Made by a program: the position numbers and the translations under genes. DNA of 64,000 nt from the NCBI GenBank assembly GCA_021647245.1, contig JAKIVC010000002.1:64184-128183 (forward strand). Reading direction: 5' to 3'. Source of the DNA: Gammaproteobacteria bacterium (lineage in GTDB: Bacteria > Pseudomonadota > Gammaproteobacteria > RBG-16-57-12). Positions 14,989 through 37,612 of the stretch are shown here, one piece after another. Each line of letters opens with the position of its first letter. The first letter of the stretch is position 1. Below the pieces are notes generated by a model. That model did not search any database. It was not told the origin of the DNA and worked only from the letters and a program-made list of their open reading frames with translations.

Positions 14989-16025
14989 TAGCGGAATAGA
15001 TCCTTGTTGACGGCTTTTGTGGCAGCATCCTGCTTGCTGACCAAACCTTTTTGTACCAGGTTTTGTAGGCACTGATCCAGTGTTTGCATGCCAATCGCCT
15101 GGCTGGTTTGAAGTACCGAGTACATCTGCGGCACCTTCGCTTCGCGAATAAGATTACGAATTGCGGGCGTACCAATCATTATTTCGTGGGCCGCTATGCG
15201 CCCGCCACCCATCTTTTTCAGCAGTGATTGGGAGATAACCGCTTGCAGTGACTCAGAGAGCATCGCCCGCACCATCTCTTTTTCACCACCAGGAAAGACA
15301 TCGATAATCCGGTCGATGGTTTTCGCCGCTGAGCTGGTGTGGAGCGTGCCAAATACCAAGTGCCCGGTTTCAGCGGCTGAAAGCGCTAAACCGATGGTTT
15401 CAGGGTCACGCATTTCACCCACCAGAATAACATCAGGGTCTTCACGTAGCGCAGAGCGCAGTGACTCGGAAAAGCCAAGGGTGTCGCGATGAACTTCGCG
15501 TTGATTGATGAGGCATTTTTTTGATTCGTGCACAAATTCTATCGGGTCTTCAATGGTTAGAATATGGCCAAACTCATTCTCATTTTTGTCATTTACCATG
15601 GCGGCGAGGGTGGTGGATTTACCCGAGCCGGTAGGGCCCGTTACCAGCACCAGGCCGCGTGGATATTGTGCAATCCTCTTGAATATTTCGGGGGCACCCA
15701 GATCGTCCAGCGTGAGTATTTTTGAAGGGATGGTTCGGAATACCGCACCGGCTCCCCGGTTTTGATTGAAAGCATTGACACGAAAACGCGCTAAGTTGGG
15801 TATTTCGAAGGAGAAATCAGTCTCAAAGAACTCCTCGAAATCTTTGCGCTGTTTATCATTCATGATGTCATAAATCAGGCTCTGCACCGTTTTGTGGTCG
15901 AGTGCTGGCACATTAATTCGGCGAATATCACCGTCAACACGAATCATCGGCGGCTCACCCGCAGAGAGGTGTAGATCAGATGCGTTATTTTTCACACCAA
16001 AAGCGAGCAGTTCTGTAATGTCCAT
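14988..16025 (-). CDS. pilT: Type IV pilus twitching motility ATPase PilT.
   Basis: MDITELLAFGVKNNASDLHLSAGEPPMIRVDGDIRRI... plus GPTGSGKSTTLAAM. 345 aa. Confidence 0.95.
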   Translation of the reverse strand: MDITELLAFGVKNNASDLHLSAGEPPMIRVDGDIRRINVPALDHKTVQSLIYDIMNDKQRKDFEEFFETDFSFEIPNLARFRVNAFNQNRGAGAVFRTIPSKILTLDDLGAPEIFKRIAQYPRGLVLVTGPTGSGKSTTLAAMVNDKNENEFGHILTIEDPIEFVHESKKCLINQREVHRDTLGFSESLRSALREDPDVILVGEMRDPETIGLALSAAETGHLVFGTLHTSSAAKTIDRIIDVFPGGEKEMVRAMLSESLQAVISQSLLKKMGGGRIAAHEIMIGTPAIRNLIREAKVPQMYSVLQTSQAIGMQTLDQCLQNLVQKGLVSKQDAATKAVNKDLFR

Positions 16026-16175
16026 CTGTTATTCCCAATAATAAATTGTACCGAAGTCATCTTACCACCCTATGGTGTGGGTTGGTAAGCGGTTGATTAT
16101 TTGATGGTTGAGCATTGATTATAGCCGTGTATAGCGGCATTCTAGAAGAAAAACTTAGCCCCTGTAAGGCCTTTG

Positions 16176-16272
16176 TTCTCATTCCCAGATAGGGTCACGC
16201 ATACTGTACAAGCTCTTGATTCCACAGTGAAACCAAACGCTTACACACTAACCTGGGGATGAGGGCTTTACG
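16176..16272 (+). repeat. Short variant of intergenic repeat family R1.
   Basis: The core attcccagatagggtcacgcatactgtacaagctcttgattccacagtgaaac matches the copies at 37862, 41453 and 50554. The right end cctggggatgaggg is an inverted copy of the left end. Confidence 0.6.
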
Positions 16273-16309
16273 TGAAAGGTGGTTTCATCCTGCGGGGTGG
16301 TAGTATGAG

Positions 16310-17044
16310 GTGTCATATCCAACGGGAGAGGTGATGGTGAGTTCGCGACAAAATCCACTGGCGGAGCGTTATGCGCAGCTGATAATGCGTATTCGGCATG
16401 CCGAGCAACAGGCTGGCCGCTCTGTCGGTTCGGTGCAGCTATTGGCTGTTAGTAAAACGGTGGCCGCTGAGCGGCTGGGTTATGCTGCTCTGCTGGGGCA
16501 ACAGGCGTTTGGTGAGAATTACCTACAAGAGGCGTTGAATAAACAGGTTTTACTTGCCGAGCTTGATCTCCAGTGGCATTTTATTGGGCCGTTGCAATCC
16601 AATAAAAGCCGGGCAGTTGCAGAGAAGTTCAACTGGTTGCACACACTTGATCGGCTAAAATTGGCACGGCGGCTCTCAGCTCAGCGCCCCGAAAATATGC
16701 CACCCTTGAATATCTGCTTGCAAGTGAATATCAGTGGTGAGCCGAGCAAGTCCGGTGTATTACCTGACGAACTCTCACCGCTGGCGGCTGATATTGCCGA
16801 GTTGCCGGGGTTGCAATTGCGGGGTTTGATGGCACTGCCGGCCCCTTGTGATAAGTTTGATGAACAGCGTCGCGTATTTGCCTCAGTACGCAAGCTTTAT
16901 CAGCAGTTGATTGATGAGGGGCACCCGTTGGATACGTTGTCCATGGGAATGTCGGCAGACCTTGAGGCAGCGGTGGCGGAAGGTGCTACCATAGTACGCA
17001 TAGGCAGTGCACTGTTTGGTGCTCGTGATCATAAGATGCAGTAA
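16310..17044 (+). CDS. yggS: PLP homeostasis protein YggS.
   Basis: LLAVSKT...FGENYLQE motifs. 244 aa. It is upstream of proC-yggT as in Pseudomonas. Confidence 0.9.
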   Translation: MSYPTGEVMVSSRQNPLAERYAQLIMRIRHAEQQAGRSVGSVQLLAVSKTVAAERLGYAALLGQQAFGENYLQEALNKQVLLAELDLQWHFIGPLQSNKSRAVAEKFNWLHTLDRLKLARRLSAQRPENMPPLNICLQVNISGEPSKSGVLPDELSPLAADIAELPGLQLRGLMALPAPCDKFDEQRRVFASVRKLYQQLIDEGHPLDTLSMGMSADLEAAVAEGATIVRIGSALFGARDHKMQ

Positions 17045-18594: not shown

Positions 18595-20544
18595 GTGATG
18601 GAAACCAATACTTTATCAGAGAGATTACACTGCTATAACCAATGGAAAGATGACGTCGTCCATAAGCTTAAAGCTTATGAACAGGTTCTTAAGGATGCTG
18701 AACTTGACAGCGTAGAGCAGGAAATCCGCATCGACGATATGATTGCCAAGTTGCATGATGATCGTATTGTTGTGGCCTTTGTCGCAGAGTTTTCCCGGGG
18801 GAAAACCGAATTAATAAATGCTATTTTCTTTGCAGATTACAAACGCCGACTACTGCCATCTGAGGCAGGTCGTACCACGATGTGCCCAACCGAGCTATTT
18901 TACGACCATGAGAGTACGGATGCTTACATTCGGTTACTGCCAATAGAGACACGCCTAGACGACAGCAGCATCAATGAACATAAACAGGATCTGAGTTACT
19001 GGACAACGTTACACCTTGATATCTCTTCACCAGAAAAGATGGCAGAGAGCTTTAAAGAGGTTATAAAGGTTAAAAAGGTGAGCGTGAAGGAGGCGATTAA
19101 ACTCGGCCTCTACGACGAAACACTGGTGGATAATGAAGAGTCGGAGGTTGAGATCCCCATGTGGCGGCATGCCCTGATCAGCTTCCCCCACCCGCTGTTA
19201 AAAGAGGGACTAGTGATCCTGGATACACCCGGCTTGAACGCGCTGGGTACAGAGCCAGAATTGACCATGGATATGTTACCCAATGCACATGCAATCATGT
19301 TTGTTTTGGGTGCTGACACCGGTGTAACCCGCTCTGATATGGAAGTGTGGGATCAGCATGTGAGCAGTTTTAGCCGTGGCAGTAATCATTCAAACCTGAT
19401 GGTGGTGCTCAATAAAATTGACACATTATGGGATGAGTTGCTGGATGATGAGCAAGTGGCCGCCAATATCGACAGCCAGTGCCAAAATACCGCTAAAACA
19501 TTGAATGTCTCCCCCGACTCAATATTCCCTGTCTCGGCCCACAAGGGGTTGCTGGGGCGCGTGAAAAATAACCCAGAGCTGCTGGAAAAGAGTGGCATTG
19601 CATCGATTGAAAATATGCTTTCGGATACTGTTTTACCGGAAAAGCAGACCATTATTCGTGATCGGGTTATCGACGAAGTGGGCACTATGGTGGAGTCAAC
19701 GCTAAATATTATCCAGGCGCGACATAATTCAGTGCAAGAGCAGCTGGGCGAACTGCAAGGGATCGGCAACAAAAATGAGGCGATGATCAGCCACTTGATC
19801 AAGACCACCCATGCTGAAGCAATCGCCTATAAGGTGAGAGTCGACAACTACCACACCAGCCGTAATCTGCTTAACAGCAAAATCAAAGAGATCCTGGAAT
19901 ACGTTGACCTTAAAGTCCTCGATAGGGTGATTGATGAGGCTCGCAATGAGATGCAAGGCACCTGGACAACCGGCGGCTTGCGTAAATCAATGATGTTCTT
20001 CTTTGAAAATATGATGCAGATCATGTCGCAGGTGAACTACCTTGGCGAGCAAGCCAATGATTTGGTCAAGACATCTTACAAGCGCTTCCATGAAGAGTTT
20101 GGCTTGCCAAACATTCGCCCAACGCTGTTTTCCAACCAGGTTTATGTGCTGCGTATGGAGCGACTACTCAAGCGCTCCGAGGAGTACCGAACCAGCTCAA
20201 CCATGACCATGACCGAACAGAGCTTTGTTATTAAGCGTTTCTTTGTCTCGGTGGTGAGCCATGCCCGTGATGTTTTTTATAAAGCGAATGAAGAGTCTAG
20301 GCTGTGGTCAAAAAGTGCCTTGGCTCCTATCGCAACGGAGATAAAAGAGCGCAAGCGGGTAATGGATAAGCGGCTCAGTAACCTGAATCGAGTAAAAGAC
20401 TCCAAAGAGACATTAGAGAGCAAGCTGAACGAGCTGGCTGACGAACAGCGTGGCCTAGATAAACAGCTCAGCGAACTCAATGAGATCAATGAAATTATTT
20501 GCGCCCCCCTCGACAAAGAGAAGAGTGAGCCTAATAATCAATAA
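18595..20544 (+). CDS. Dynamin-family GTPase (bacterial dynamin-like protein), a single-gene form.
   Basis: G1 AEFSRGKTELINAIF, G3 LVILDTPGLNA, G4 VVLNKIDTLW. The C-terminal half is long and helical with a coiled-coil tail. 649 aa. Confidence 0.75.
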   Translation: MMETNTLSERLHCYNQWKDDVVHKLKAYEQVLKDAELDSVEQEIRIDDMIAKLHDDRIVVAFVAEFSRGKTELINAIFFADYKRRLLPSEAGRTTMCPTELFYDHESTDAYIRLLPIETRLDDSSINEHKQDLSYWTTLHLDISSPEKMAESFKEVIKVKKVSVKEAIKLGLYDETLVDNEESEVEIPMWRHALISFPHPLLKEGLVILDTPGLNALGTEPELTMDMLPNAHAIMFVLGADTGVTRSDMEVWDQHVSSFSRGSNHSNLMVVLNKIDTLWDELLDDEQVAANIDSQCQNTAKTLNVSPDSIFPVSAHKGLLGRVKNNPELLEKSGIASIENMLSDTVLPEKQTIIRDRVIDEVGTMVESTLNIIQARHNSVQEQLGELQGIGNKNEAMISHLIKTTHAEAIAYKVRVDNYHTSRNLLNSKIKEILEYVDLKVLDRVIDEARNEMQGTWTTGGLRKSMMFFFENMMQIMSQVNYLGEQANDLVKTSYKRFHEEFGLPNIRPTLFSNQVYVLRMERLLKRSEEYRTSSTMTMTEQSFVIKRFFVSVVSHARDVFYKANEESRLWSKSALAPIATEIKERKRVMDKRLSNLNRVKDSKETLESKLNELADEQRGLDKQLSELNEINEIICAPLDKEKSEPNNQ

Positions 20545-21730: not shown

Positions 21731-22842
21731 TGGAGCTTCCACAGGTTGACGACTATTCAGCGCTTTTTTTAGATGAAGTACCGATGATCGACCTGCGAGC
21801 CCCGCAGGAGTTTGAGCAGGGACGCTTTCAAAATGCGATAAACCTACCGTTAATGAACGATGAAGAGCGCAAGTTAGTGGGTATTTGCTATAAAGAACAA
21901 GGCCAGCAACAGGCGATTGCGCTGGGTCATGAGCTAGTAACCGGCGAGGTAAAACAGCAGCGCCTGGAGCGGTGGCTGCGGTTTGTAGAAGAGAATCCAC
22001 AGGGTGTTTTGTACTGCTTTCGTGGCGGACTACGCTCACAAATAACCCAGCGCTGGATCTATGAAGAGAGCGGCATCGTCTACCCACGAGTACACGGTGG
22101 CTACAAAACACTGCGCCGTTATTTGCTCGATGAGCTAGAGCGCTCCATTGCGCAGATACAGCCGACCATCCTCAGTGGACGCACTGGCACAGGCAAGACA
22201 CTGCTACTAAAGAAAATCAATAACAGCATCGACTTGGAAGGCGTCTATCATCATCGTGGTTCAGCATTTGGTCGTCACGCCACGCCACAACCGAGCCAGA
22301 TCGATGTGGAGAACCGGCTTTCAGTTGAGCTGCTGAAAAAAATCATATTAGCCGCTGAAGCAGCGCCCCAACTGCTGCTTGAAGATGAAGGGAGCAATAT
22401 CGGCTCACGCAACCTGCCCCACTCACTGATTGAGCGCATGGTGGCGGCACCCATCGTGGTACTGGAAATTCCACTAGCGCAACGGGTCGATATCGTATTC
22501 GATGAATATATTACGGCAGCGCTCTCTGAATATCAGCAGCTACTGGGCGACGAGCACGGCTTTACCACCTGGTCAGAAAACCTGCGCCAGGCACTTGGAC
22601 GGGTTAAACGTCGCTTAGGTGGAGAGCGTTACGGACTGCTTGATGCCGTGATGAGTGGTGCGATTTCTGACCAGCAACAACGGGGTGAAACATCGGCTCA
22701 CCGCGAGTGGATTCAGCGATTACTTAACGATTACTACGACCCAATGTATGACTATCAGTTACAGAAAAAAGCCGAGCGCATCACCTTTCGGGGCGATGAC
22801 AAAGCAGTAATTGAGTATCTTAATACTCAAAATATTACCTAA
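21727..22842 (+). CDS. selU: tRNA 2-selenouridine synthase (SelU/MnmH/YbbB).
   Basis: N-terminal rhodanese domain and a P-loop GRTGTGKT. It overlaps selD by 4 nt. Confidence 0.88.
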
Positions 22843-22849
22843 TTGCACA

Positions 22850-22887
22850 CTGGGGTCAGAGTAAACGTTACTTTACTCTGACCCCAG
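22850..22887 (+). terminator. Perfect 16-bp stem hairpin downstream of selU. It has no U-tract.
   Basis: ctggggtcagagtaaa cgttac tttactctgaccccag. Confidence 0.35.
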
Positions 22888-22998
22888 CGTCCACTCCCCT
22901 GCGACAACATGTCGCATTCTTTCTATGCCGGGATTCCAATACAATTTTGTCATTAACTGTTCCCTACCCGGTTTATTGACTAAATTATAGGAGTCTCC

Positions 22999-24663
22999 AT
23001 GGCTATTCATAATAAGCGTAATATTTTATGGTCGGCACTGCTGCTGAGTGGTGCTGTGGCATTGAGTGGCTGTAATAGCTCATCAGATGATAATACCGTT
23101 GAGGGTGCAGCAATCGAGGGCTCTATTTTTGCCGCCCCGGTGAGTGCTGCTTCGATATCTGTGTTTGACCTGAATGGTAATCGGGTGGCAGGTCCGGTGA
23201 CGAGTGGGGCAGATGGGCATTATCAAATCACAATTCCTGATGCACACCTTGCCAGTGACCTTAGCTTTATCAGCAGTGGCGGCACGTTTACAGATGAGGC
23301 GACGGGTGAGGCTAATGTCAGCGCAGGTCAAATGTCTGTTTATGTCGCGGCAGATAGCCTTGCGGCGGGTAGTGAAGTACACGCGACACCCTCTTCTACG
23401 ATTATGCACCAGTTGATTATGCAACATGGTCAAGGCTATGTAGAGGCGCAGGCGGCTTTTGAGAGTGCCTTTGGTTATCAGCCTGATTATACTGTGGCAC
23501 CAACGGATGCGACCGCACCGGCGGCCGATGCGACCGACCAGCAAATGTTGGCGGGACTGCGTGCCGCCAGTTTCAGCCAATTAGCCCAGGATTTGGGGAT
23601 GAGCGCCACTGATCAGTTTGCCTTGCTGGAGGCGTTGGCACTGGATTTGTCAGATGGTGAGCTTGACGGGCAGAGTACATCGGGTGCGGTTATTCTCCCG
23701 GCACCTGTCAACATACCATTGCAATTGCATATTCAGCATCAGTTTGCGATGGCACTGGAGGGGTTTCATCGGGGGGGGCGCAATGCAACCAGTTTAAATG
23801 CCAGTCAAATAGGCGTATTGCCCTTTGCTAAAGTGGCCAGCAGTGAAAGTTACCGCTTCGAATATCAGCCGGGCATGATGCCGGCAATGGAGGGGAAAAC
23901 CACATTCAAAATTGTGGTTACAGATGCGGCCACTGGGCAGCTGGCGCAGGGCGGATTGAACTTAATACTACAGGCAAAAATGTATATGGCGACAAAAATG
24001 CATGCCACACCAGTGGATGGTTGTAGTGAATCGGCAACAGCAGGTGTTTATGATTGTACTATTTTCTACCTGATGCCTTCGGTTATGAACGGTATGTCGA
24101 TGGGCTATTGGGAGTTGATGGTTACCACTGATAATAATGAAATGGTCAGCTTTTACCCGGGTGTTGGTATGGGCATGAACGGCAATGGTAAGCGCAGTTT
24201 GATGGCTCAATCAACGGGCACTGTGGTGGATGATGCCGGTTTGACTGTTCCTACCTACAGCGATTTTGTTATGAGTCCCACCTCGGCACGGAAGTACCTC
24301 CTGTTTAAAGACAGTATTGCAGCAGGCTCCATTTCAGGCCACAAAGTGCGCCTGTTTATTGCGGTAAAAGAGAGTATGGACTCATTTCCAGCGCTCTACA
24401 CAGGTGCTAGTTTTAATATGGCTAGTTTTACTGTCAGCTCAATTAACGCAGAATTTTCAGTGGATGGCGCTAGCTGGTCACCTATGACAGAAGAGGGCGC
24501 GGGTTATTGGTCTGTTGATAACGCACCGGGTTTAGTCGATGGTGTTGAAAACACGTTCTATATGCGCCTGCATGTCAATGGTGAACAGAAAACAGCCAAT
24601 GGTAGTGTGCCGGCACTGGATGGTAGTAACGATTACGCAATTTTTACAACTACCCTGAATTAA
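22999..24663 (+). CDS. Exported lipoprotein of unknown function with an N-terminal CarbopepD_reg-like domain and a Met-rich C-terminal region.
   Basis: Lipobox LSGC. VFDLNGNRVAGPVTSGADGHYQITIP motif. Met-rich segments MPSVMNGMSMGYWELMV and GVGMGMNGNG. 554 aa. Confidence 0.6.
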   Translation: MAIHNKRNILWSALLLSGAVALSGCNSSSDDNTVEGAAIEGSIFAAPVSAASISVFDLNGNRVAGPVTSGADGHYQITIPDAHLASDLSFISSGGTFTDEATGEANVSAGQMSVYVAADSLAAGSEVHATPSSTIMHQLIMQHGQGYVEAQAAFESAFGYQPDYTVAPTDATAPAADATDQQMLAGLRAASFSQLAQDLGMSATDQFALLEALALDLSDGELDGQSTSGAVILPAPVNIPLQLHIQHQFAMALEGFHRGGRNATSLNASQIGVLPFAKVASSESYRFEYQPGMMPAMEGKTTFKIVVTDAATGQLAQGGLNLILQAKMYMATKMHATPVDGCSESATAGVYDCTIFYLMPSVMNGMSMGYWELMVTTDNNEMVSFYPGVGMGMNGNGKRSLMAQSTGTVVDDAGLTVPTYSDFVMSPTSARKYLLFKDSIAAGSISGHKVRLFIAVKESMDSFPALYTGASFNMASFTVSSINAEFSVDGASWSPMTEEGAGYWSVDNAPGLVDGVENTFYMRLHVNGEQKTANGSVPALDGSNDYAIFTTTLN

Positions 24664-24679
24664 TGTTTTAAGGTTTTCC

Positions 24680-25651
24680 ATGGCTAATCTCTCAACAAAG
24701 GCCGCCCTCTTTGCAGTGGCGGCCCTTACCCTTTCTCAGCCTTTATCTGCGGCATCATGCTGTGGCGGTGGCTCCTCTTCTGCCTTGGTTATGCCCAAAT
24801 TTGCTACGGGGATGGTCGACCTTTCGTTTTCCATGGAAAACTACGATGGCTATTGGAATAGAGAGGGGGAGTATACCGAAGACCCTGTGGGCTCTCGCTT
24901 GAAACAGTATCGTTTTAATGTTGGCTATGCCCACCGCTTGGGTAAACGCTGGCAGGCGAGTGTTGTCACCCCTTATGTCTGGAATGATAACCAATACAGC
25001 GGTGTCTCATCCGAAACCCAAGGGATGGGGGATACCACCATTAACCTTTGGTATGAAGGATTTGAGAATATCACCTGTGTCTGGAAAATAAAAAAGCCGG
25101 AGGATTGGATACCCGCCAGTTACTACGGGTTATCCATGACACTCCCCACGGGTGTCTCTCCTTATGACAATGTGGAGAATAGCTTTGATATTACCGGTCG
25201 GGGTTTTTATCGTGTGGATGCCAATCTGCTGTTGGATAAGACCATCTACCCCTGGAATGCGACACTGGCACTCTCTTACGGAAAGTATATAGAGCGTCCG
25301 GTTAATCGTGAATATGGCCGCTATGTGGCGCCGTATGATAAGCAGTTGGGTGACCGCTTTTCAGGCTCGCTCTCTGGGGGGTATACCCAGTTTCTTGATA
25401 ATATGGATACCCTGAGCTACACCCTCTCTTATGCTTATTTACAAGAGAGCCAAGGTGAAATTGATGGCATTACAGATACTACCACCGGAATGGAGAAGCA
25501 GACGCTATCCGCAACAGCAGCTTATGCCAGTATGGATCGGGACTGGGTCTTTAAACTAACCTTGAGCCACAGCCCTAAGCGGGATGGTTATGGTGAGAGT
25601 TTTCCCGTTACCAATGTGGTGACACTGGGGGTGAGCCATGTTCTTCGTTAA
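24680..25651 (+). CDS. Outer-membrane beta-barrel protein, similar to the MetA/phenol-pathway OM channel family.
   Basis: Signal peptide and alternating amphipathic strands with a C-terminal aromatic-rich barrel. 323 aa. Confidence 0.5.
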   Translation: MANLSTKAALFAVAALTLSQPLSAASCCGGGSSSALVMPKFATGMVDLSFSMENYDGYWNREGEYTEDPVGSRLKQYRFNVGYAHRLGKRWQASVVTPYVWNDNQYSGVSSETQGMGDTTINLWYEGFENITCVWKIKKPEDWIPASYYGLSMTLPTGVSPYDNVENSFDITGRGFYRVDANLLLDKTIYPWNATLALSYGKYIERPVNREYGRYVAPYDKQLGDRFSGSLSGGYTQFLDNMDTLSYTLSYAYLQESQGEIDGITDTTTGMEKQTLSATAAYASMDRDWVFKLTLSHSPKRDGYGESFPVTNVVTLGVSHVLR

Positions 25652-26174
25652 ACTTGTTGGCCTACTCATGCTGTTGCTGTTAAGTGCCTGCCAAGATGAC
25701 CTGAATCCATCGGATAGCGATGAGCGGCCTGTGGTTCAGACCGGTATTATTGGCAATCAAGTAGGGCAAATTGCCCCTGACTTTACGGCAGGCTCAACAA
25801 CACTAAACACCGCCCACACACTCTCTTCTGATTTACAAACCTATGATGCAGTGGTGCTCTATTTCACCATGTGGTGTCCTATTTGTGATGAGCATATGAG
25901 CCATCTGCGTGCGACTTATGTGAGCAACTACCCCAATGTGCAATTTTTCCTGGTGGATTATGTGAGCGGCTCGCTGGAGGCTGCACGTAATACACAACTT
26001 GCCAGTGGTTATGGCGATATGAGAGTGCTGGTTGATGTAAACCGGGAGATTGAATTTCTTTATGAAGGCACCATGGGGAGTACGGTTGTGATTAATAACA
26101 GTGGTATTGTGCTTATGAACCAAGGCTATAGTGATGGTCGTCAACTGGGTCAGGTATTGGGGGAGCTGCCATGA
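25638..26174 (+). CDS. Thioredoxin-fold lipoprotein with an atypical CPIC active site.
   Basis: Lipobox LSAC and VVLYFTMWCPICDEHM. 178 aa. It overlaps both neighbours. Confidence 0.6.
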   Translation: MFFVKLVGLLMLLLLSACQDDLNPSDSDERPVVQTGIIGNQVGQIAPDFTAGSTTLNTAHTLSSDLQTYDAVVLYFTMWCPICDEHMSHLRATYVSNYPNVQFFLVDYVSGSLEAARNTQLASGYGDMRVLVDVNREIEFLYEGTMGSTVVINNSGIVLMNQGYSDGRQLGQVLGELP

Positions 26175-26434
26175 GAGTGTGGTTACTCATCGCGCTATTT
26201 TTGCTCACCAAGCTGGCTTATTCTGAATCGGTCGAATTAAATGGCCAGCAGCTTTTTGAGGCTCGATGCAGTATTTGTCACCAACTGCCTGCACCCGATA
26301 TGTTGAATCATCGGCAGTGGCACCGGGTAATCAACACCATGCAAATTCGTATGCAACAAGCGGATATTGAGCCGCTGGATGAGGACGAAATTACCGCAAT
26401 AAAAGAGTATTTGCAGTGGTATGTAGATGATTAA
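26171..26434 (+). CDS. Small monohaem c-type cytochrome.
   Basis: Signal peptide and a single CxxCH motif (CSICH). 87 aa. Confidence 0.6.
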   Translation: MRVWLLIALFLLTKLAYSESVELNGQQLFEARCSICHQLPAPDMLNHRQWHRVINTMQIRMQQADIEPLDEDEITAIKEYLQWYVDD

Positions 26435-26942
26435 ATATTTGGCTTCAGCTGGCCTGTTGCTGCTTCTGAGCTTTCCGTTGCAGGCTGACCCTCTGGCAAC
26501 ATTTGGTGCGGAACCGGTGTCGGGAGCAGCAACGGCCTTTATCTTGCCGGACCTTGAGGGTGAAATTCATGCCTTGGCGCAGTGGCAGGGCAAGGTGGTG
26601 ATGCTCAACTTCTGGGCAACCTGGTGTGCCCCTTGTCGGGACGAAATGCCGGGAATGGAACGGCTTTGGCAACGCTATGGTGAGGATGGCCTAGTGGTAG
26701 TGGCGATATCTGTTGATGAGGGAATGGAGCGCCGGGTTGCCAAATTTGTTGAGATATTGAGATTAACCTATCCGATTTTACTCGACCCAGACTATGCGGT
26801 AGGTGACCTTTATCAAGTGAGCGGGCTGCCACACAGTCTATTGATTGACCGTGAAGGGCAGTTGATTGCAAAGGTTGTGGGCCAGCGTGAGTGGGATAGT
26901 GCAGAGTCTTTTGCGTTAATTGAGTCACTACTCTCCCAGTGA
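26427..26942 (+). CDS. TlpA-like periplasmic thiol:disulfide oxidoreductase.
   Basis: WATWCAPCRDEMP motif. 171 aa with a signal peptide. Confidence 0.8.
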   Translation: MIKYLASAGLLLLLSFPLQADPLATFGAEPVSGAATAFILPDLEGEIHALAQWQGKVVMLNFWATWCAPCRDEMPGMERLWQRYGEDGLVVVAISVDEGMERRVAKFVEILRLTYPILLDPDYAVGDLYQVSGLPHSLLIDREGQLIAKVVGQREWDSAESFALIESLLSQ

Positions 26943-33875: not shown

Positions 33876-34967
33876 GTGAATGAGATGTTCCGATATTTAG
33901 TAGTGGCTGCGCTGTTTCCTATGTTGTCCGGCTGTGGTGGAGATACCCCGGCATCATCCAGTGAACCAGAGCGTGTTGAAAAAATAGTCGCTCGAGAGAG
34001 TAACCGTAGCTGCCTTGCTCCGGCGGATGCTATCGATACCGCGACCCGGCTCTCCACCACAGGCTGTTTTACAGATGTTAGCAACCAGATAATGGCGGGT
34101 GGGGTGATCCCCTACACCGTCAATAGCGTGTTGTGGTCCGATGGTGAGAGCAAAGGGCGTTATTTTGCAGTGCCGGATGGCACGACCATCAGCTTAACGG
34201 TGGACGAATCTTCAATTGTTGCCAGTAATGGCACTAAAAATGGTGATTTCAACTTTCCGGTAGGCGCGGTGGTGATCAAACACTTCTATAGTGGCAGCCG
34301 TATCGTTGAGACCCGCTTGCTGATGAACCATGCCAATGATGGTTGGGGTGGCTACGCCTATCAGTGGGATGAGTCACAGAGTGACGGTACCCTGCTGGTT
34401 GGCTCAAATAGCATCACCACACCGGTCAGCCACTATTTCCCGAGCCGCGAAGAGTGTATGGAGTGCCATACGGATGCCGCTCGGGTGTTATTAGGGCCGG
34501 ATACTCTACAACTCAATTACCCCCTTTACTATACGGATGGCACAGAAGAGAACTATCTCGATGCTTTGGTTCGATTAAATTACCTCTCGGCACCGTTGCT
34601 GGCGGATTATAAGGTGGATCGGCTCTATGCAATTGACGATAGCGACGCACCATTAGAGCAGCGAGCCAGAAGCTATTTGCACAGTAACTGCTCGGGCTGT
34701 CACCGCACTGGCGCACCGCAAGGTGGCTTTGATCTTCGTTACACCTCATCGTTTGTAAACAATGTTTGTGGTATCGCTGCAGCAGAGCCGACCAGCCCCA
34801 CCGGAGGGTTGCTGATCGACCCCGGCAATGCTGATAACGCCACTATTCAGCAGCGACTCGCCTCTATGGGGAGCATTCAAATGCCACCTATCGGGCGAGA
34901 GCAAACCGACCCCGAAGCGGTTCAAGTGATGGCTGATTGGATCAATAGCCTGCAGGGCTGTGATTAA
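33876..34967 (+). CDS. Dihaem c-type cytochrome lipoprotein with a Planctomycete-type cytochrome c (PSCyt1-like) C-terminal domain.
   Basis: Lipobox LSGC. Two CxxCH motifs (CMECH, CSGCH). CHRTGAPQGGFDLRY...SIQMPP fits the PSCyt1 pattern. Confidence 0.6.
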   Translation: MNEMFRYLVVAALFPMLSGCGGDTPASSSEPERVEKIVARESNRSCLAPADAIDTATRLSTTGCFTDVSNQIMAGGVIPYTVNSVLWSDGESKGRYFAVPDGTTISLTVDESSIVASNGTKNGDFNFPVGAVVIKHFYSGSRIVETRLLMNHANDGWGGYAYQWDESQSDGTLLVGSNSITTPVSHYFPSREECMECHTDAARVLLGPDTLQLNYPLYYTDGTEENYLDALVRLNYLSAPLLADYKVDRLYAIDDSDAPLEQRARSYLHSNCSGCHRTGAPQGGFDLRYTSSFVNNVCGIAAAEPTSPTGGLLIDPGNADNATIQQRLASMGSIQMPPIGREQTDPEAVQVMADWINSLQGCD

Positions 34968-37612
34968 CCCAGCAACTTTTTTAACTCCGGCACACATGAG
35001 CCACAATTTGTGCCGGCATTCAGATAGCTACCAATCTCTTCCACACTTTTCAAGCCATGTTTTTGGATCGCCTCTCGAATACTGTTTTCACCTACCTTGA
35101 AACAGGCGCAGACCACACGCCCGGTATCAACCTGGCCGACCGGTGGCTTTCCAGTGAGCAGTGCACGGCGCTCATCATTATCCAGCACCTCTTTTTCAAA
35201 AAGTGAGGCGAGCCAACTGCGGGGTGGCAGCGCTTTGTCCGGGGCGATGAAAATACAGCTCTCCACTTGATCTCCTGTCATACGAATACCTCGATAGGTG
35301 TTTGCGCCGTTATCCAGCAGTTCGACCCAGTTGACATCATTATTTGAGGTGCAAAGATAACTTCTCGCCCATGCGGGGAGATCTTTGGAGCGTTGCTCAC
35401 CCGCCACTTCGTATCGATAGTGGTTATTGCCGGTTGCCCTTGCCCAGTAACAGACCCCTTCCAGTTTTAATGCGCGGCGCGAAAGGATAAAGCCGTGCCA
35501 TGCGGTTTGGTAAGGCTTAAGCTGCACCGGCGTATGTTTAAACTCAGGTTGGCCCGAAAGCGGGTCTACCGCAGGATTGACCACTGCGGAGGCTTTTCCC
35601 CTGCTGGAAAACTGCTCGCTCCAGTGCATCGGCGCAAACAATTCACCACGGCGCTGGCCGTTGTCCAAGCGTACTCGCCCGATCATCTCACCCCAGCGGC
35701 TGGTCACCGTGGCTAACGCATCCTCATTGATAGAGAGCGCCACGGCATCATCAGGATGAATGGCGATGTAGGGTTCGGGGCTATGCTCAGATAGCCGTGG
35801 CGCCTTTCCAGTGCGGGTCATGGTGTGCCACTGGTCGCGTACCCGCCCAGTATTCAGAATAAAGGGAAAGCTGTCACAGGGCATGTGTGCGGGTAGCCGT
35901 GGCTCAATGGCTTGAAACTGTGCCTTGCCTGATGGCGTGAAAAAATGGCCATCACTAAACATGCGAGCACTCCCCGCAGGCTGCTGTTGATTCACTGGCC
36001 ACTGGATGGGTGATAGCTGGTGGTAACTCTGTTGAGTTTGACTGCTCAGTGCCGAAAGGTCGAAGTCACGCTCTCCGTTGTTTCTATATCCGGAAAGAGC
36101 CGCGTGTTCGTTAAATATTTCGTAAGGGTGTTGATAATTAAAACCATCGCTATACCCCATACGCTTGGCCACCTCAGAGATTATCCACCAATCGGGTTTT
36201 GCTTCACCGGCAGCCGCCTGAAAAGCTCTCTGGCGTGAGATACGTCGTTCAGAATTGGTAACGGTGCCGCTCTTCTCCCCCCAGCCTTGGGCCGGTAATA
36301 AAATATTGGCACGGAGGGTGGTGTCGGTCTGCTTAACGCAATCGGAGACCACTACAAACTCGCACTGTTTGATCGCTTCTGCAACGTGGTCTGCATTGGG
36401 CATGCTGGCTGCGGGGTTGGTGGCCATGATCCATACAGCCTTGATCTTTCCCTTGGCAATATCATCAAACATATCTACCGCCTTGCGGCCGCTTTGTTTA
36501 GGAATGGCGGGTGAGCCCCAGAAGCTTTGTACTAAAGTACGGTGCGCGGGGTTTTTTATCTCCATATGAGCGGCCAACATATTGGCCAACCCGCCTACTT
36601 CGCGCCCTCCCATGGCGTTTGGTTGGCCAGTAAAAGAGAAGGGGCCCATGCCGGGGCGACCGATACGCCCGGTGGCCAGATGGCAGTTGATAATGGCATT
36701 GACCTTATCCGAACCACTGGTTGATTGATTAATGCCCTGAGAGTAGACAGTGACCACCCGCTCTGTGCGGGAGAAGAGTCGATAAAACGCTTGAACCACA
36801 GACACTTCGAGGCCACAGCGTAGTGCCACGGAGTCGACGCTAGGCGCGGTTTTTTCTGCCATGCGGAGTGCGGTCTCAAACCCCTCGGTATAAGCATTCA
36901 AATAACTGTGGTTTATTTCACCATCCCGCTGCAGATAACTTAGCAAGCCATTAAACAGTACGGTATCGGTACCAGAACGCAGGGGCAGGTGGAGGTCGGC
37001 AATGTCACAGCTGGGGGTCTCTCTGGGGTCGATTACTACCACCATCAGATCGGGGTTGACCCGCTTTGCCTGGTTGATTCGCTGAAACAGTACCGGATGA
37101 CACCAGGCTGCATTGGTGCCGGCCAGTACAATCAGCTTTGCTCGTTCCAGATCTTCATAACAGCAGGGCACGGTGTCTGACCCAAAAGCGCGTTTATGGC
37201 CTGTGACAGAAGAGGACATGCAGAGCCGCGAGTTGGTATCAATATTGGCTGTGCCGATATAACCTTTGATCAGCTTATTGGCGACATAGTAATCTTCAGT
37301 CAAGAGTTGCCCCGACACATAAAAAGCGACCGCGTCAGGGCCGTGCTGCTCAACGGTTGCTAAAAACCTCTCCGCGACCTCCCCAAGCGCCTGATCCCAG
37401 CTGGCGGGTATTCCCTCAATTTCGGGCTGGAGCAGCCGCCCCTCCAGTCCCAAGGTTTCGCCCAACGCCGACCCTTTGGAGCAGAGCTTGCCAAAATTAG
37501 CGGGGTGCAGCGGGTCACCTTGGACTGTGTAGCCGCCATCAGCATTCGCTGCTACCAGCACTCCGCAGCCAACACCACAATAGGGGCAGGTTGTTTTTGT
37601 CATCTTGGACAT
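34964..37612 (-). CDS. nasA: Assimilatory nitrate reductase catalytic subunit with a C-terminal BFD-like [2Fe-2S] domain.
   Basis: N-terminal CPYCGVGCG 4Fe-4S motif, molybdopterin oxidoreductase domains, and a C-terminal CACFKV...CGSC. 882 aa. Confidence 0.9.
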   Translation of the reverse strand: MSKMTKTTCPYCGVGCGVLVAANADGGYTVQGDPLHPANFGKLCSKGSALGETLGLEGRLLQPEIEGIPASWDQALGEVAERFLATVEQHGPDAVAFYVSGQLLTEDYYVANKLIKGYIGTANIDTNSRLCMSSSVTGHKRAFGSDTVPCCYEDLERAKLIVLAGTNAAWCHPVLFQRINQAKRVNPDLMVVVIDPRETPSCDIADLHLPLRSGTDTVLFNGLLSYLQRDGEINHSYLNAYTEGFETALRMAEKTAPSVDSVALRCGLEVSVVQAFYRLFSRTERVVTVYSQGINQSTSGSDKVNAIINCHLATGRIGRPGMGPFSFTGQPNAMGGREVGGLANMLAAHMEIKNPAHRTLVQSFWGSPAIPKQSGRKAVDMFDDIAKGKIKAVWIMATNPAASMPNADHVAEAIKQCEFVVVSDCVKQTDTTLRANILLPAQGWGEKSGTVTNSERRISRQRAFQAAAGEAKPDWWIISEVAKRMGYSDGFNYQHPYEIFNEHAALSGYRNNGERDFDLSALSSQTQQSYHQLSPIQWPVNQQQPAGSARMFSDGHFFTPSGKAQFQAIEPRLPAHMPCDSFPFILNTGRVRDQWHTMTRTGKAPRLSEHSPEPYIAIHPDDAVALSINEDALATVTSRWGEMIGRVRLDNGQRRGELFAPMHWSEQFSSRGKASAVVNPAVDPLSGQPEFKHTPVQLKPYQTAWHGFILSRRALKLEGVCYWARATGNNHYRYEVAGEQRSKDLPAWARSYLCTSNNDVNWVELLDNGANTYRGIRMTGDQVESCIFIAPDKALPPRSWLASLFEKEVLDNDERRALLTGKPPVGQVDTGRVVCACFKVGENSIREAIQKHGLKSVEEIGSYLNAGTNCGSCVPELKKLLG

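Follow-up and report, generated by a model that had tools for sequence, protein, structure and literature searches.

Copper passage across the Gram-negative outer membrane to periplasmic and respiratory enzymes is one of the less understood steps of copper homeostasis, and to our knowledge only a few outer-membrane copper routes have been described, namely OprC/NosA, PcoB/CopB and porins. PcoB/CopB is an outer-membrane 12-stranded barrel that stands alongside the periplasmic Met-rich copper proteins PcoA and PcoC, the former a member of the multicopper oxidase family. CrdA of Helicobacter pylori is a CopC/PcoC-like periplasmic protein in which a Met-rich loop is the proposed Cu(I) site (PMC9182242), and YtkA/CtaK is a lipoprotein implicated in CuA assembly along with the thioredoxin-like copper protein Sco (PMC13344008). 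Among outer-membrane channels, the COG4313 protein Pput2725 is a 12-stranded barrel, and its first ~14 residues enter the lumen and constrict the pore (PMC4493636). The subject of this analysis is a set of five genes, named P1 to P5 in order, in a 64-kb stretch of gammaproteobacterial DNA (contig JAKIVC010000002.1; hereafter the window). Comparison of these genes with their relatives gives about an even chance that the first three, P1, P2 and P3, form an undescribed outer-membrane module for copper(I), or for a thiophilic metal ion much like it. The genes and the two segments on which this reading centres are as follows (aa, amino acids).

22999..24663, + strand: P1, 554-aa lipoprotein (lipobox …ALSGC, Cys25)
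Domains of P1 in the predicted structure (residues): immunoglobulin (Ig)-like 36-130; helical 131-271; Met/His beta-domain 279-402; disordered insert 408-427; C-terminal beta-domain 430-554
23980..24177, + strand: Met/His cluster of P1, comprising M328, M330, H335, M359, M363, M368, M391 and M393
24680..25651, + strand: P2, 323-aa protein predicted as a FapF/COG4313-type outer-membrane 12-stranded beta-barrel
24755..24772, + strand: S26-C27-C28-G29-G30-G31 of P2, a vicinal Cys pair with a glycine linker, N-terminal in the mature protein
25638..26174, + strand: P3, 178-aa thioredoxin-fold lipoprotein (lipobox …LLSAC, Cys18)
26171..26434, + strand: P4, 87-aa exported monohaem c-type cytochrome, an accessory gene
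26427..26942, + strand: P5, 171-aa exported TlpA/ResA-like thiol:disulfide oxidoreductase, an accessory gene

A preliminary description of the window had placed five consecutive, mostly overlapping genes for exported proteins at 22999-26942, and all five open reading frames lie there: P1 and P2 are separated by 16 nt, and the three junctions that follow are overlaps of 14, 4 and 8 nt. The export signals, read directly from the N-termini, are lipoboxes on P1 and P3 and cleavable signal peptides on P2, P4 and P5. The motifs quoted in that description are likewise present, namely MPSVMNGMSMGY (P1 359-370), GVGMGMNGNG (P1 388-397), WCPIC (P3), CSICH (P4) and WCAPC (P5).

At least 221 homologues of P1 were found in a search that scored the top 8000 candidates only; none of them carries an annotation, and nearly all derive from metagenome-assembled genomes. 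An exact-sequence look-up with the window's P1 matched no contig on record. When one genome per species was scanned, P1 relatives were present in 176 of 185,579 species, and 80 of these 176 loci were compared by searching all reading frames with the five window proteins. P1 is followed by P2 and then P3 in 60 of the 62 loci whose downstream DNA extends far enough to judge. The lineages with this triad are Gammaproteobacteria (Chromatiales, Thiotrichales, Oleiphilaceae and others), Geobacteraceae/Desulfuromonadaceae, Nitrospirota, Anaeromyxobacter, Deferrisomatales and SAR324. P4 was detected at 22 of 33 gammaproteobacterial loci and at none of 18 Desulfuromonadota loci; the corresponding counts for P5 are 25 of 33 and 1 of 18, and in Nitrospirota P5 is found upstream of P1. 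On these co-occurrence counts, the conserved unit is the three genes P1-P2-P3, not five, and P4 and P5 are lineage-specific additions. Co-conservation of the set, as raised in the preliminary description, holds across phyla for P1-P2-P3 and mainly within Gammaproteobacteria for P4 and P5. The module is rare yet strongly conserved. It is carried by Gammaproteobacteria that oxidise sulfur, by relatives of Geobacter, by Nitrospirota and by other bacteria of hydrothermal vents and of anoxic or sulfidic sediments, settings in which copper is locked up in sulfides.

The window copies of P1 and P2 matched no curated family in profile searches. In its structural model, P2 is nevertheless a member of the FapF/COG4313 channels, with the 12-stranded barrel of ~270-320 residues seen in COG4313 proteins, and while the window P2 was unmatched by PF13557 at E<=1, several homologues (~60% identical) carry a match to this family, one of them marked weak. 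The sequence S-C-C-G-G at the start of the mature protein is invariant in 64/64 P2 sequences from all lineages, and G31 is present in 62 of the 64. About 18 residues (26-43) precede strand 1 of the barrel, and these were modelled with a predicted local distance difference test score (pLDDT) <50. A further cysteine, C133, was considered as a third metal ligand and rejected: it is Ser in 17 of the 64 sequences and is therefore dispensable. Neither a Fap operon context nor the long N-terminal coiled-coil and plug helix of FapF were found for P2. The described COG4313/PF13557 (Pput2725) and FapF proteins have been linked to hydrophobic compounds or amyloid secretion, and none has been described with an invariant N-terminal Cys-Cys-Gly-Gly-Gly or with P1 and P3 partner genes. 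In its pairing of an outer-membrane 12-stranded barrel with a Met-rich protein, the locus resembles PcoB/CopB.

The AlphaFold model of P1, obtained with 94 homologues, has a pLDDT of 89.9 and a predicted template modelling score of 0.85. Residues M328, M330, M359, W371 and P387 are invariant in 71/71 P1 homologues from all lineages, H335 is present in 69 of them, and M368, M391 and M393 are each found in 62-64. The Met-rich motifs sit in the confidently modelled beta-domain (pLDDT >90), and the insert at 408-427 alone is disordered and variable. The Met-rich region is thus conserved and ordered, and the concern that it might be filler can be set aside. The conserved Met/His cluster is a candidate Cu(I) site. 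A fold search found in P1 the Greek-key beta-sandwich of ~100 residues known from CopC, PcoC and CrdA. The domain aligned with CrdA is not the N-terminal domain of P1, as the latter has 94 residues and the alignment spans 98, and it would be either the Met/His or the C-terminal domain, with sequence-level hints favouring the Met/His domain. One such hint is the YtkA-like family PF13115, which matched the Met/His region below threshold in 6 of 29 family members; the window P1 itself has no PF13115 match. P1 differs from CrdA in several respects. Its domain is embedded in a 554-aa four-domain lipoprotein, and an invariant His with three separate Met clusters takes the place of the single MMxEMPGMxxMxEM loop, without His, of CrdA. 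The partners also differ, being a 12-stranded barrel and a thioredoxin-like lipoprotein for P1 and the CrdB/CzcBA efflux proteins for CrdA.

A profile of the Met/His domain identified 380 relatives among 1.84 billion representative proteins. These include a second architecture, lipoproteins of ~300 aa that consist of the Met/His domain and the C-terminal domain only. One such short variant, P0250, is followed by P2-like (…AASCCGGGS…) and P3-like (…MWCPTCDSHM…) genes, which argues that the C-terminal module of P1 is the part tied to the triad. In P0241, a 526-aa lipoprotein, the Met/His plus C-terminal module is duplicated in tandem. The N-terminal module of P1 (lipobox, Ig-like domain and helical domain with DLxDGTLDG) is also borne by other proteins, and in L076:9845-12595 and L079:3888-5888 it is fused to a multicopper oxidase (Cu-oxidase_3 and Cu-oxidase_2, E ~1e-28). 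It gives the impression of a lipoprotein unit that can be reused in copper proteins, and its occurrence on multicopper oxidases provides a tie to PcoA. Both fusion proteins have Met-rich tails. An unusual P1 homologue from Geobacter, L067:9842-11965, carries an extra C-terminal He_PIG domain and a tail with CxxCH (CTVCH) that Pfam did not call as a cytochrome; His335 is replaced, and there is no P2 or P3 downstream. From its sequence, this protein may be a fusion with a P4-analogous cytochrome.

Profile matches for P3 are marginal (AhpC-TSA 27.5 bits, cutoff 26; Redoxin 24.6 bits). The active-site motif is M78-W-C80-P-I-C83-D-E-H86-M87, in which M78, W79, C80 and C83 are conserved in 62/62 sequences, as is D107, and H86 in 58/62; a conserved N-terminal tether, DDLxPSxxDxR, is also present, and the lipobox cysteine is retained. 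Such a concentration of Met, His and Cys near the CxxC would fit metal binding no less than redox chemistry. WCPIC had been called unusual in the preliminary description, but it is not especially so for the superfamily, CcmG for instance having WCPTC, and what is distinctive is the conserved M-W-C-P-x-C-D-x-H-M context. Assignment of P3 to Sco/SenC is not supported, as no SCO1-SenC match was obtained at E<=1 and the motif is CxxC, not CxxxC.

P5 belongs firmly to the TlpA/ResA/AhpC-TSA thioredoxin-like superfamily by its matches to AhpC-TSA (91.3 bits, E 5.8e-26), Redoxin (71.3 bits, E 1e-19) and Thioredoxin_8 (47.3 bits), and its active site W66-C67-A-P-C70 is of the standard TlpA type, WCAPCRDEMP. 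Scores for the equivalog families fall below their cutoffs (ResA 121.9 bits, cutoff 170; TlpA 104.8, cutoff 230; DsbE 46.9, cutoff 123). P4 has the single haem motif C33-S-I-C-H37 and marginal matches to Cytochrom_C (22.5 bits, cutoff 21.3) and DHC (22.8 bits, cutoff 22.2), and thus has the features of a class I c-type cytochrome, with the family match a marginal one. It also matches the TorC C-terminal domain (E 3.7e-6), and its conserved pattern is CxxCHQLPxPxML…QW…TMQxRMQQA. The Bacillus subtilis YtkA/CtaK-Sco and Bradyrhizobium PcuC-ScoI-TlpA sets resemble P1-P5 in combining a lipoprotein copper chaperone with thioredoxin-fold proteins; P5 is TlpA-like, and P3 has Cys, His and Met around its CxxC. 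Unlike in those sets, P3 matches AhpC-TSA/Redoxin and not SCO1/SenC, and the YtkA matches of P1 relatives stay below the Pfam threshold. The YtkA/Sco systems moreover act at the cytoplasmic membrane without an outer-membrane channel, and oxidase genes are not adjacent to P1-P5.

To describe the gene neighbourhood, the 300 immediate neighbour proteins (three genes on each side) were scanned against Pfam and the flanking genes were also clustered; the top 25 families per side were listed, down to families with two members. One family is specifically enriched, NosL (PF05573), which accounts for 18 of 150 proteins downstream and 5 of 150 upstream. By flank clustering, NosL-like genes occur in 22 loci, and 28 of the 33 copies have CxxCGM. 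NosL is an accessory copper chaperone of N2O reductase. The next commonest families are generic: two-component signalling domains, ATP-binding cassette (ABC) ATPases, cytochrome c7-type proteins, extra PF13557 barrels and NnrS, the last in three loci. A Csp1 copper-storage protein exported by the twin-arginine (Tat) pathway (TIGR04401, E 1.2e-35, above the cutoff) was also found in three loci, and in L023 its gene lies directly upstream of P1. Csp1 serves copper storage, and TlpA assists enzyme assembly. P-type ATPases, resistance-nodulation-division (RND) pumps, CopB/CopD and the copper-sensing regulators CueR, CusRS and CopRS were absent from the top-25 families, as were nosZ, nosD and nosR. 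The locus resembles NosL/NosDFY in having NosL-family genes as the most enriched neighbours of the core and ABC transporter genes near some loci. It differs in that the ABC permeases beside the core are FtsX-type, NosY being an ABC-2 type permease, and in that the window has no NosL. A known cytochrome c maturation or ResA-type pathway, which the preliminary description had named as an outcome that would overturn it, was rejected: Ccm and ResB families are not among the top 25, and no ccm, resB or resC was seen on reading the window's open reading frames near the operon.

Two conserved elements were found between selU and P1.

22900..22916, no strand assigned: palindrome TGCGACA-ACA-TGTCGCA (core GCGAC-N5-GTCGC), 83-99 nt upstream of the P1 start codon
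22940..22957, + strand: second conserved block ATACAATTTTGTCATTAA, identical in the window and in the close relative L002

The palindrome is the sole copy in the window. Both elements are perfectly conserved between the window and L002, the P1 proteins of which are 67% identical, and the surrounding DNA has diverged. The upstream regions of 64 loci, anchored on the lipobox codon, were searched with TGCGACA-N3-TGTCGCA. With <=2 mismatches it was found in 24 of the 64 (5 exact, 13 with one mismatch and 6 with two), as compared with ~0.1% in shuffled controls, usually 45-130 nt upstream of the P1 reading-frame start. Across 1.26 Mb of loci, 27 of 39 matches adjoin the P1 start, and several of the others precede accessory genes (NosL, c30 or a sensor kinase). 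A simple scan had flagged the palindrome as terminator-like; this was rejected in favour of an operator candidate, since the sequence itself, not just the pairing, is conserved in the 24 loci. In eight palindrome-bearing loci, genes for a histidine kinase and a response regulator adjoin the operon. The kinase belongs to the ActS/PrrB/RegB family (E 3.9e-77) and the 186-aa regulator to the ActR/PrrA/RegA family (E 2e-59), and as their scores are below the NCBIfam curated cutoffs, both are divergent members; in L081 the adjacent RegA-like regulator is encoded at 15836-16396. PrrA/RegA has been proposed to bind a GCG inverted repeat, a motif described as degenerate (PMC4263372), and the core GCGAC-N5-GTCGC fits this repeat, degenerate as the published motif is. 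These features make a RegBA-type redox two-component system, acting via the palindrome, the probable regulator of the operon. The second block could belong to the promoter or be an additional binding site. A CusR/CopR-type copper box at 22938-22953, with 2 mismatches to the consensus, was rejected because it occurs in the window and L002 only, the other loci being at the level of shuffled sequence.

The Met/His site, the thiol-pair channel, the thioredoxin-fold partners, the NosL and Csp1 neighbours and the domain common with multicopper oxidases together point to copper handling. The identity of the metal, the direction of transport, the mechanism, the partners and the identity of the regulator are what we infer from these features. 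P2 would form a narrow channel in which the flexible Ser-Cys-Cys-Gly-Gly-Gly, in or near the lumen, binds the metal via two adjacent thiols. P1, anchored in the outer membrane, would exchange Cu(I) with the P2 channel through the Met/His site of its CrdA/YtkA-like beta-domain. P3, with C-P-x-C-D-x-H-M, could keep the P2 Cys pair reduced, or could take the metal by ligand exchange like Sco or ScsC. In Gammaproteobacteria, P5 would feed reducing power to P3 and P4 could reduce Cu(II) to Cu(I); the mostly gammaproteobacterial distribution of these two genes would fit a requirement to reduce Cu(II) and oxidised thiols in the presence of some oxygen. In other lineages, neighbouring NosL chaperones, and sometimes Csp1, may take copper onward, and a RegA/PrrA-type redox regulator at the palindrome would tie the module to the respiratory chain. 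The module probably supplies copper rather than removing it, and supply to periplasmic or respiratory copper enzymes is favoured over detoxification by the roles of NosL, Csp1 and TlpA, by the lack of classical resistance genes among the listed families and by the respiratory-type regulator. A more specific version, in which the Cys-Cys arm of P2 carries Cu(I) through the pore, P1 loads or unloads the arm, P3 resets it and RegBA switches the system on to provide respiratory enzymes with copper under low-oxygen, sulfidic conditions in which the metal hardly dissolves, is speculative and on balance doubtful. If true, such a mobile-thiolate-arm translocon would fill a largely unknown outer-membrane step of bacterial copper acquisition. 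What is new here is the gene combination, the N-terminal Cys-Cys motif on a channel and the operator; every single fold is already known. The Cys-Cys on the channel, the Met/His site, the thioredoxin-like partner and the operator are testable parts, and two culturable carriers exist, Geomonas silvestris Red330 (L066) and Oleiphilaceae bacterium J1-3 (L043). Confirmation would provide a new copper-trafficking mechanism and names for several large unannotated protein families.

Several observations weigh against this reading. The SCCGGG segment may lie in the barrel lumen, a placement made by analogy with Pput2725 and on a low-confidence part of the model. Adjacent cysteine pairs are more familiar from proteins that transfer mercury, and MerB is a structural relative of NosL. 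The CrdA alignment may have fallen on the C-terminal domain of P1 instead of the Met/His domain. At the sequence level, CopC was not matched by P1 (E<=1) or by 29 sequences of the Met/His domain (E<=10), and hhalign of the Met/His domain profile with PcoC, the sequence of which was validated against 1ix2, returned a probability of 0.2%. P1, P2 and the Met/His domain had no significant sequence match to solved structures (PDB). On the Pfam, hhalign and PDB negatives, membership of the Met/His domain in the CopC/PcoC sequence family was rejected. The best PF13115 match, 23.7 bits with E 7.8e-5 over profile positions 19-76 of 85, is below the cutoff of 25.9 bits. Genes for NosL, Csp1 and RegBA are absent from the window, and the palindrome occurs mainly in gammaproteobacterial loci. 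A multihaem cytochrome block lies upstream of the operon in approximately eight or nine gammaproteobacterial loci, and the literature searched held no description of the gene set.

The same components would be expected to sequester and export copper or silver if P1 bound Cu(I) as CrdA, CopC or CusF do, P2 exported it as PcoB/CopB and the thioredoxin-like proteins repaired copper-damaged thiols as Scs. Detoxification of this kind is unlikely, given that the P-type ATPase, RND pump, CopD and the CueR, CusRS and CopRS regulators are not among the top-25 neighbour families and that the families associated with the core are instead NosL, Csp1 and TlpA. The candidate regulator is moreover of the RegA redox type and not a copper-stress regulator, the CusR-like box being confined to the window and L002. 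A different thiophilic substrate could take the place of copper, whether Hg(II), Ag(I), Cd(II), iron bound at a Cu/Fe site like that of P19, or a reactive species of sulfur or selenium for which the Cys-Cys pair is the carrier. We consider it distinctly unlikely, as Met/His-rich sites are characteristic of Cu(I)/Ag(I) and not of Hg, Fe or sulfur carriers, Csp1 and the multicopper oxidase fusions are copper-specific links, and neither mer genes nor an Ftr1/EfeU permease is among the top-25 families. For selenium, the adjacency to selD-selU recurs in L002 only among the 80 loci. The suggestion in the preliminary description of an unnamed envelope module for metals is supported for copper by the triad, the Met/His region, the CrdA fold, NosL, Csp1 and the multicopper oxidase fusion, and abandoned for selenium.

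The cytochrome block upstream of some loci might suggest an accessory of extracellular electron transfer or respiration, in which the genes encode a redox or maturation device for outer-membrane cytochromes and not a metal transporter. This is quite improbable: neither of the core proteins P1 and P2 has haem or iron-sulfur motifs, most loci and the window itself lack the block, P4 is found in no Desulfuromonadota locus, the L067 tail was not called a cytochrome by Pfam, and NosL and Csp1 would be left unexplained. Finally, from the fold of P2, a FapF-like pore could be envisaged that sends P1, or part of it, to the cell surface, with the thioredoxin-like proteins keeping cysteines of the cargo or the pore reduced; such a pore could be compatible with a copper-binding role of P1. 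FapF has a long N-terminal coiled-coil extension, and P2 has no FapF-like extension, only ~18 residues standing ahead of strand 1. There are also no Fap-type partners, the invariant SCCGG is without a counterpart in FapF, and P1 is predicted to be compact, multi-domain and well folded, hence hard to thread through a 12-stranded barrel. Secretion of P1 by P2 is, on this evidence, very improbable.

The operon is flanked by selD and selU (mnmH) on one side and by a convergent crp/vfr gene on the other, as identified by profile searches. The boundary on the selU side is marked by one further feature.

22844..22893, + strand: strong hairpin just 3' of the selU stop codon

The RNA fold of 22840-22930 has -40.2 kcal/mol and a z of -9.5 relative to shuffled sequences. 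The hairpin is without a T-run and probably marks the end of the selD-selU transcription unit. It is followed by the palindrome, the second conserved block and an AGGAG ribosome-binding site ahead of P1, and P1-P5 therefore look like an operon of their own, not an extension of selD-selU. Since the window and L002 are the only loci in which selD-selU adjoins the operon, and since the two units are parted by the hairpin and a promoter region separate from that of selD-selU, the selenium link was rejected, and with it the suggestion in the preliminary description of a role in handling selenium or chalcogen species; the selenium context is incidental. An Rfam scan of the whole window matched no RNA family.

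Further gene associations were recorded around the relatives. The cytochrome block consists of seven genes directly upstream of P1 in L011, L028, L032, L055/L081 (89-9692), L039, L034, L071 and L027. It includes a putative barrel, multihaem cytochromes with MtrC-like domains, a Fer4 membrane protein-cytochrome fusion and an NHL-repeat cytochrome, and looks like an extracellular electron transfer cluster. A second, Geobacter-type accessory set occurs in L045, L054, L052, L062, L046, L029, L036 and L044 and is, like the cytochrome block, absent from the window. It comprises NosL, often in two or three copies, a ~100-aa protein and two ABC transporter components, namely an FtsX-type permease and an ATPase. 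The set further includes a polytopic membrane protein of 331 aa, in which CC and HHCPFC motifs occur, and a Cys-rich protein of 204 aa whose gene immediately precedes P1 in 14 loci. Only NosL and the ABC components have a Pfam or NCBIfam family. In three loci (L007:874-1377, L011:9208-9711 and L032:9043-9546), a 168-aa exported protein without a family match is encoded just ahead of P1, and a separate copy of the palindrome precedes its gene. Its mature N-terminus is apparently at or beside a His, which could, from the sequence, form a histidine-brace-like copper site. A gene of the di-haem cytochrome c peroxidase/MauG family lies a few genes downstream of the operon in the gammaproteobacterial loci L039, L051, L053, L058 and L065, and is reminiscent of CorB and MbnH, which partner copper-binding proteins in methanotrophs.

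Elsewhere in the window, a 649-aa protein encoded directly upstream of selD (18595-20544, + strand) has a P-loop region (FSRGKTELINAIF) and long coiled-coil-like stretches and resembles a dynamin-like GTPase. A lipoprotein-like protein with two CxxCH motifs (33876-34964, + strand) is encoded beside a large protein (34967-37612, - strand) that has an N-terminal CPYCGVGC and resembles molybdopterin oxidoreductases, perhaps those of the nitrate reductase or formate dehydrogenase type.

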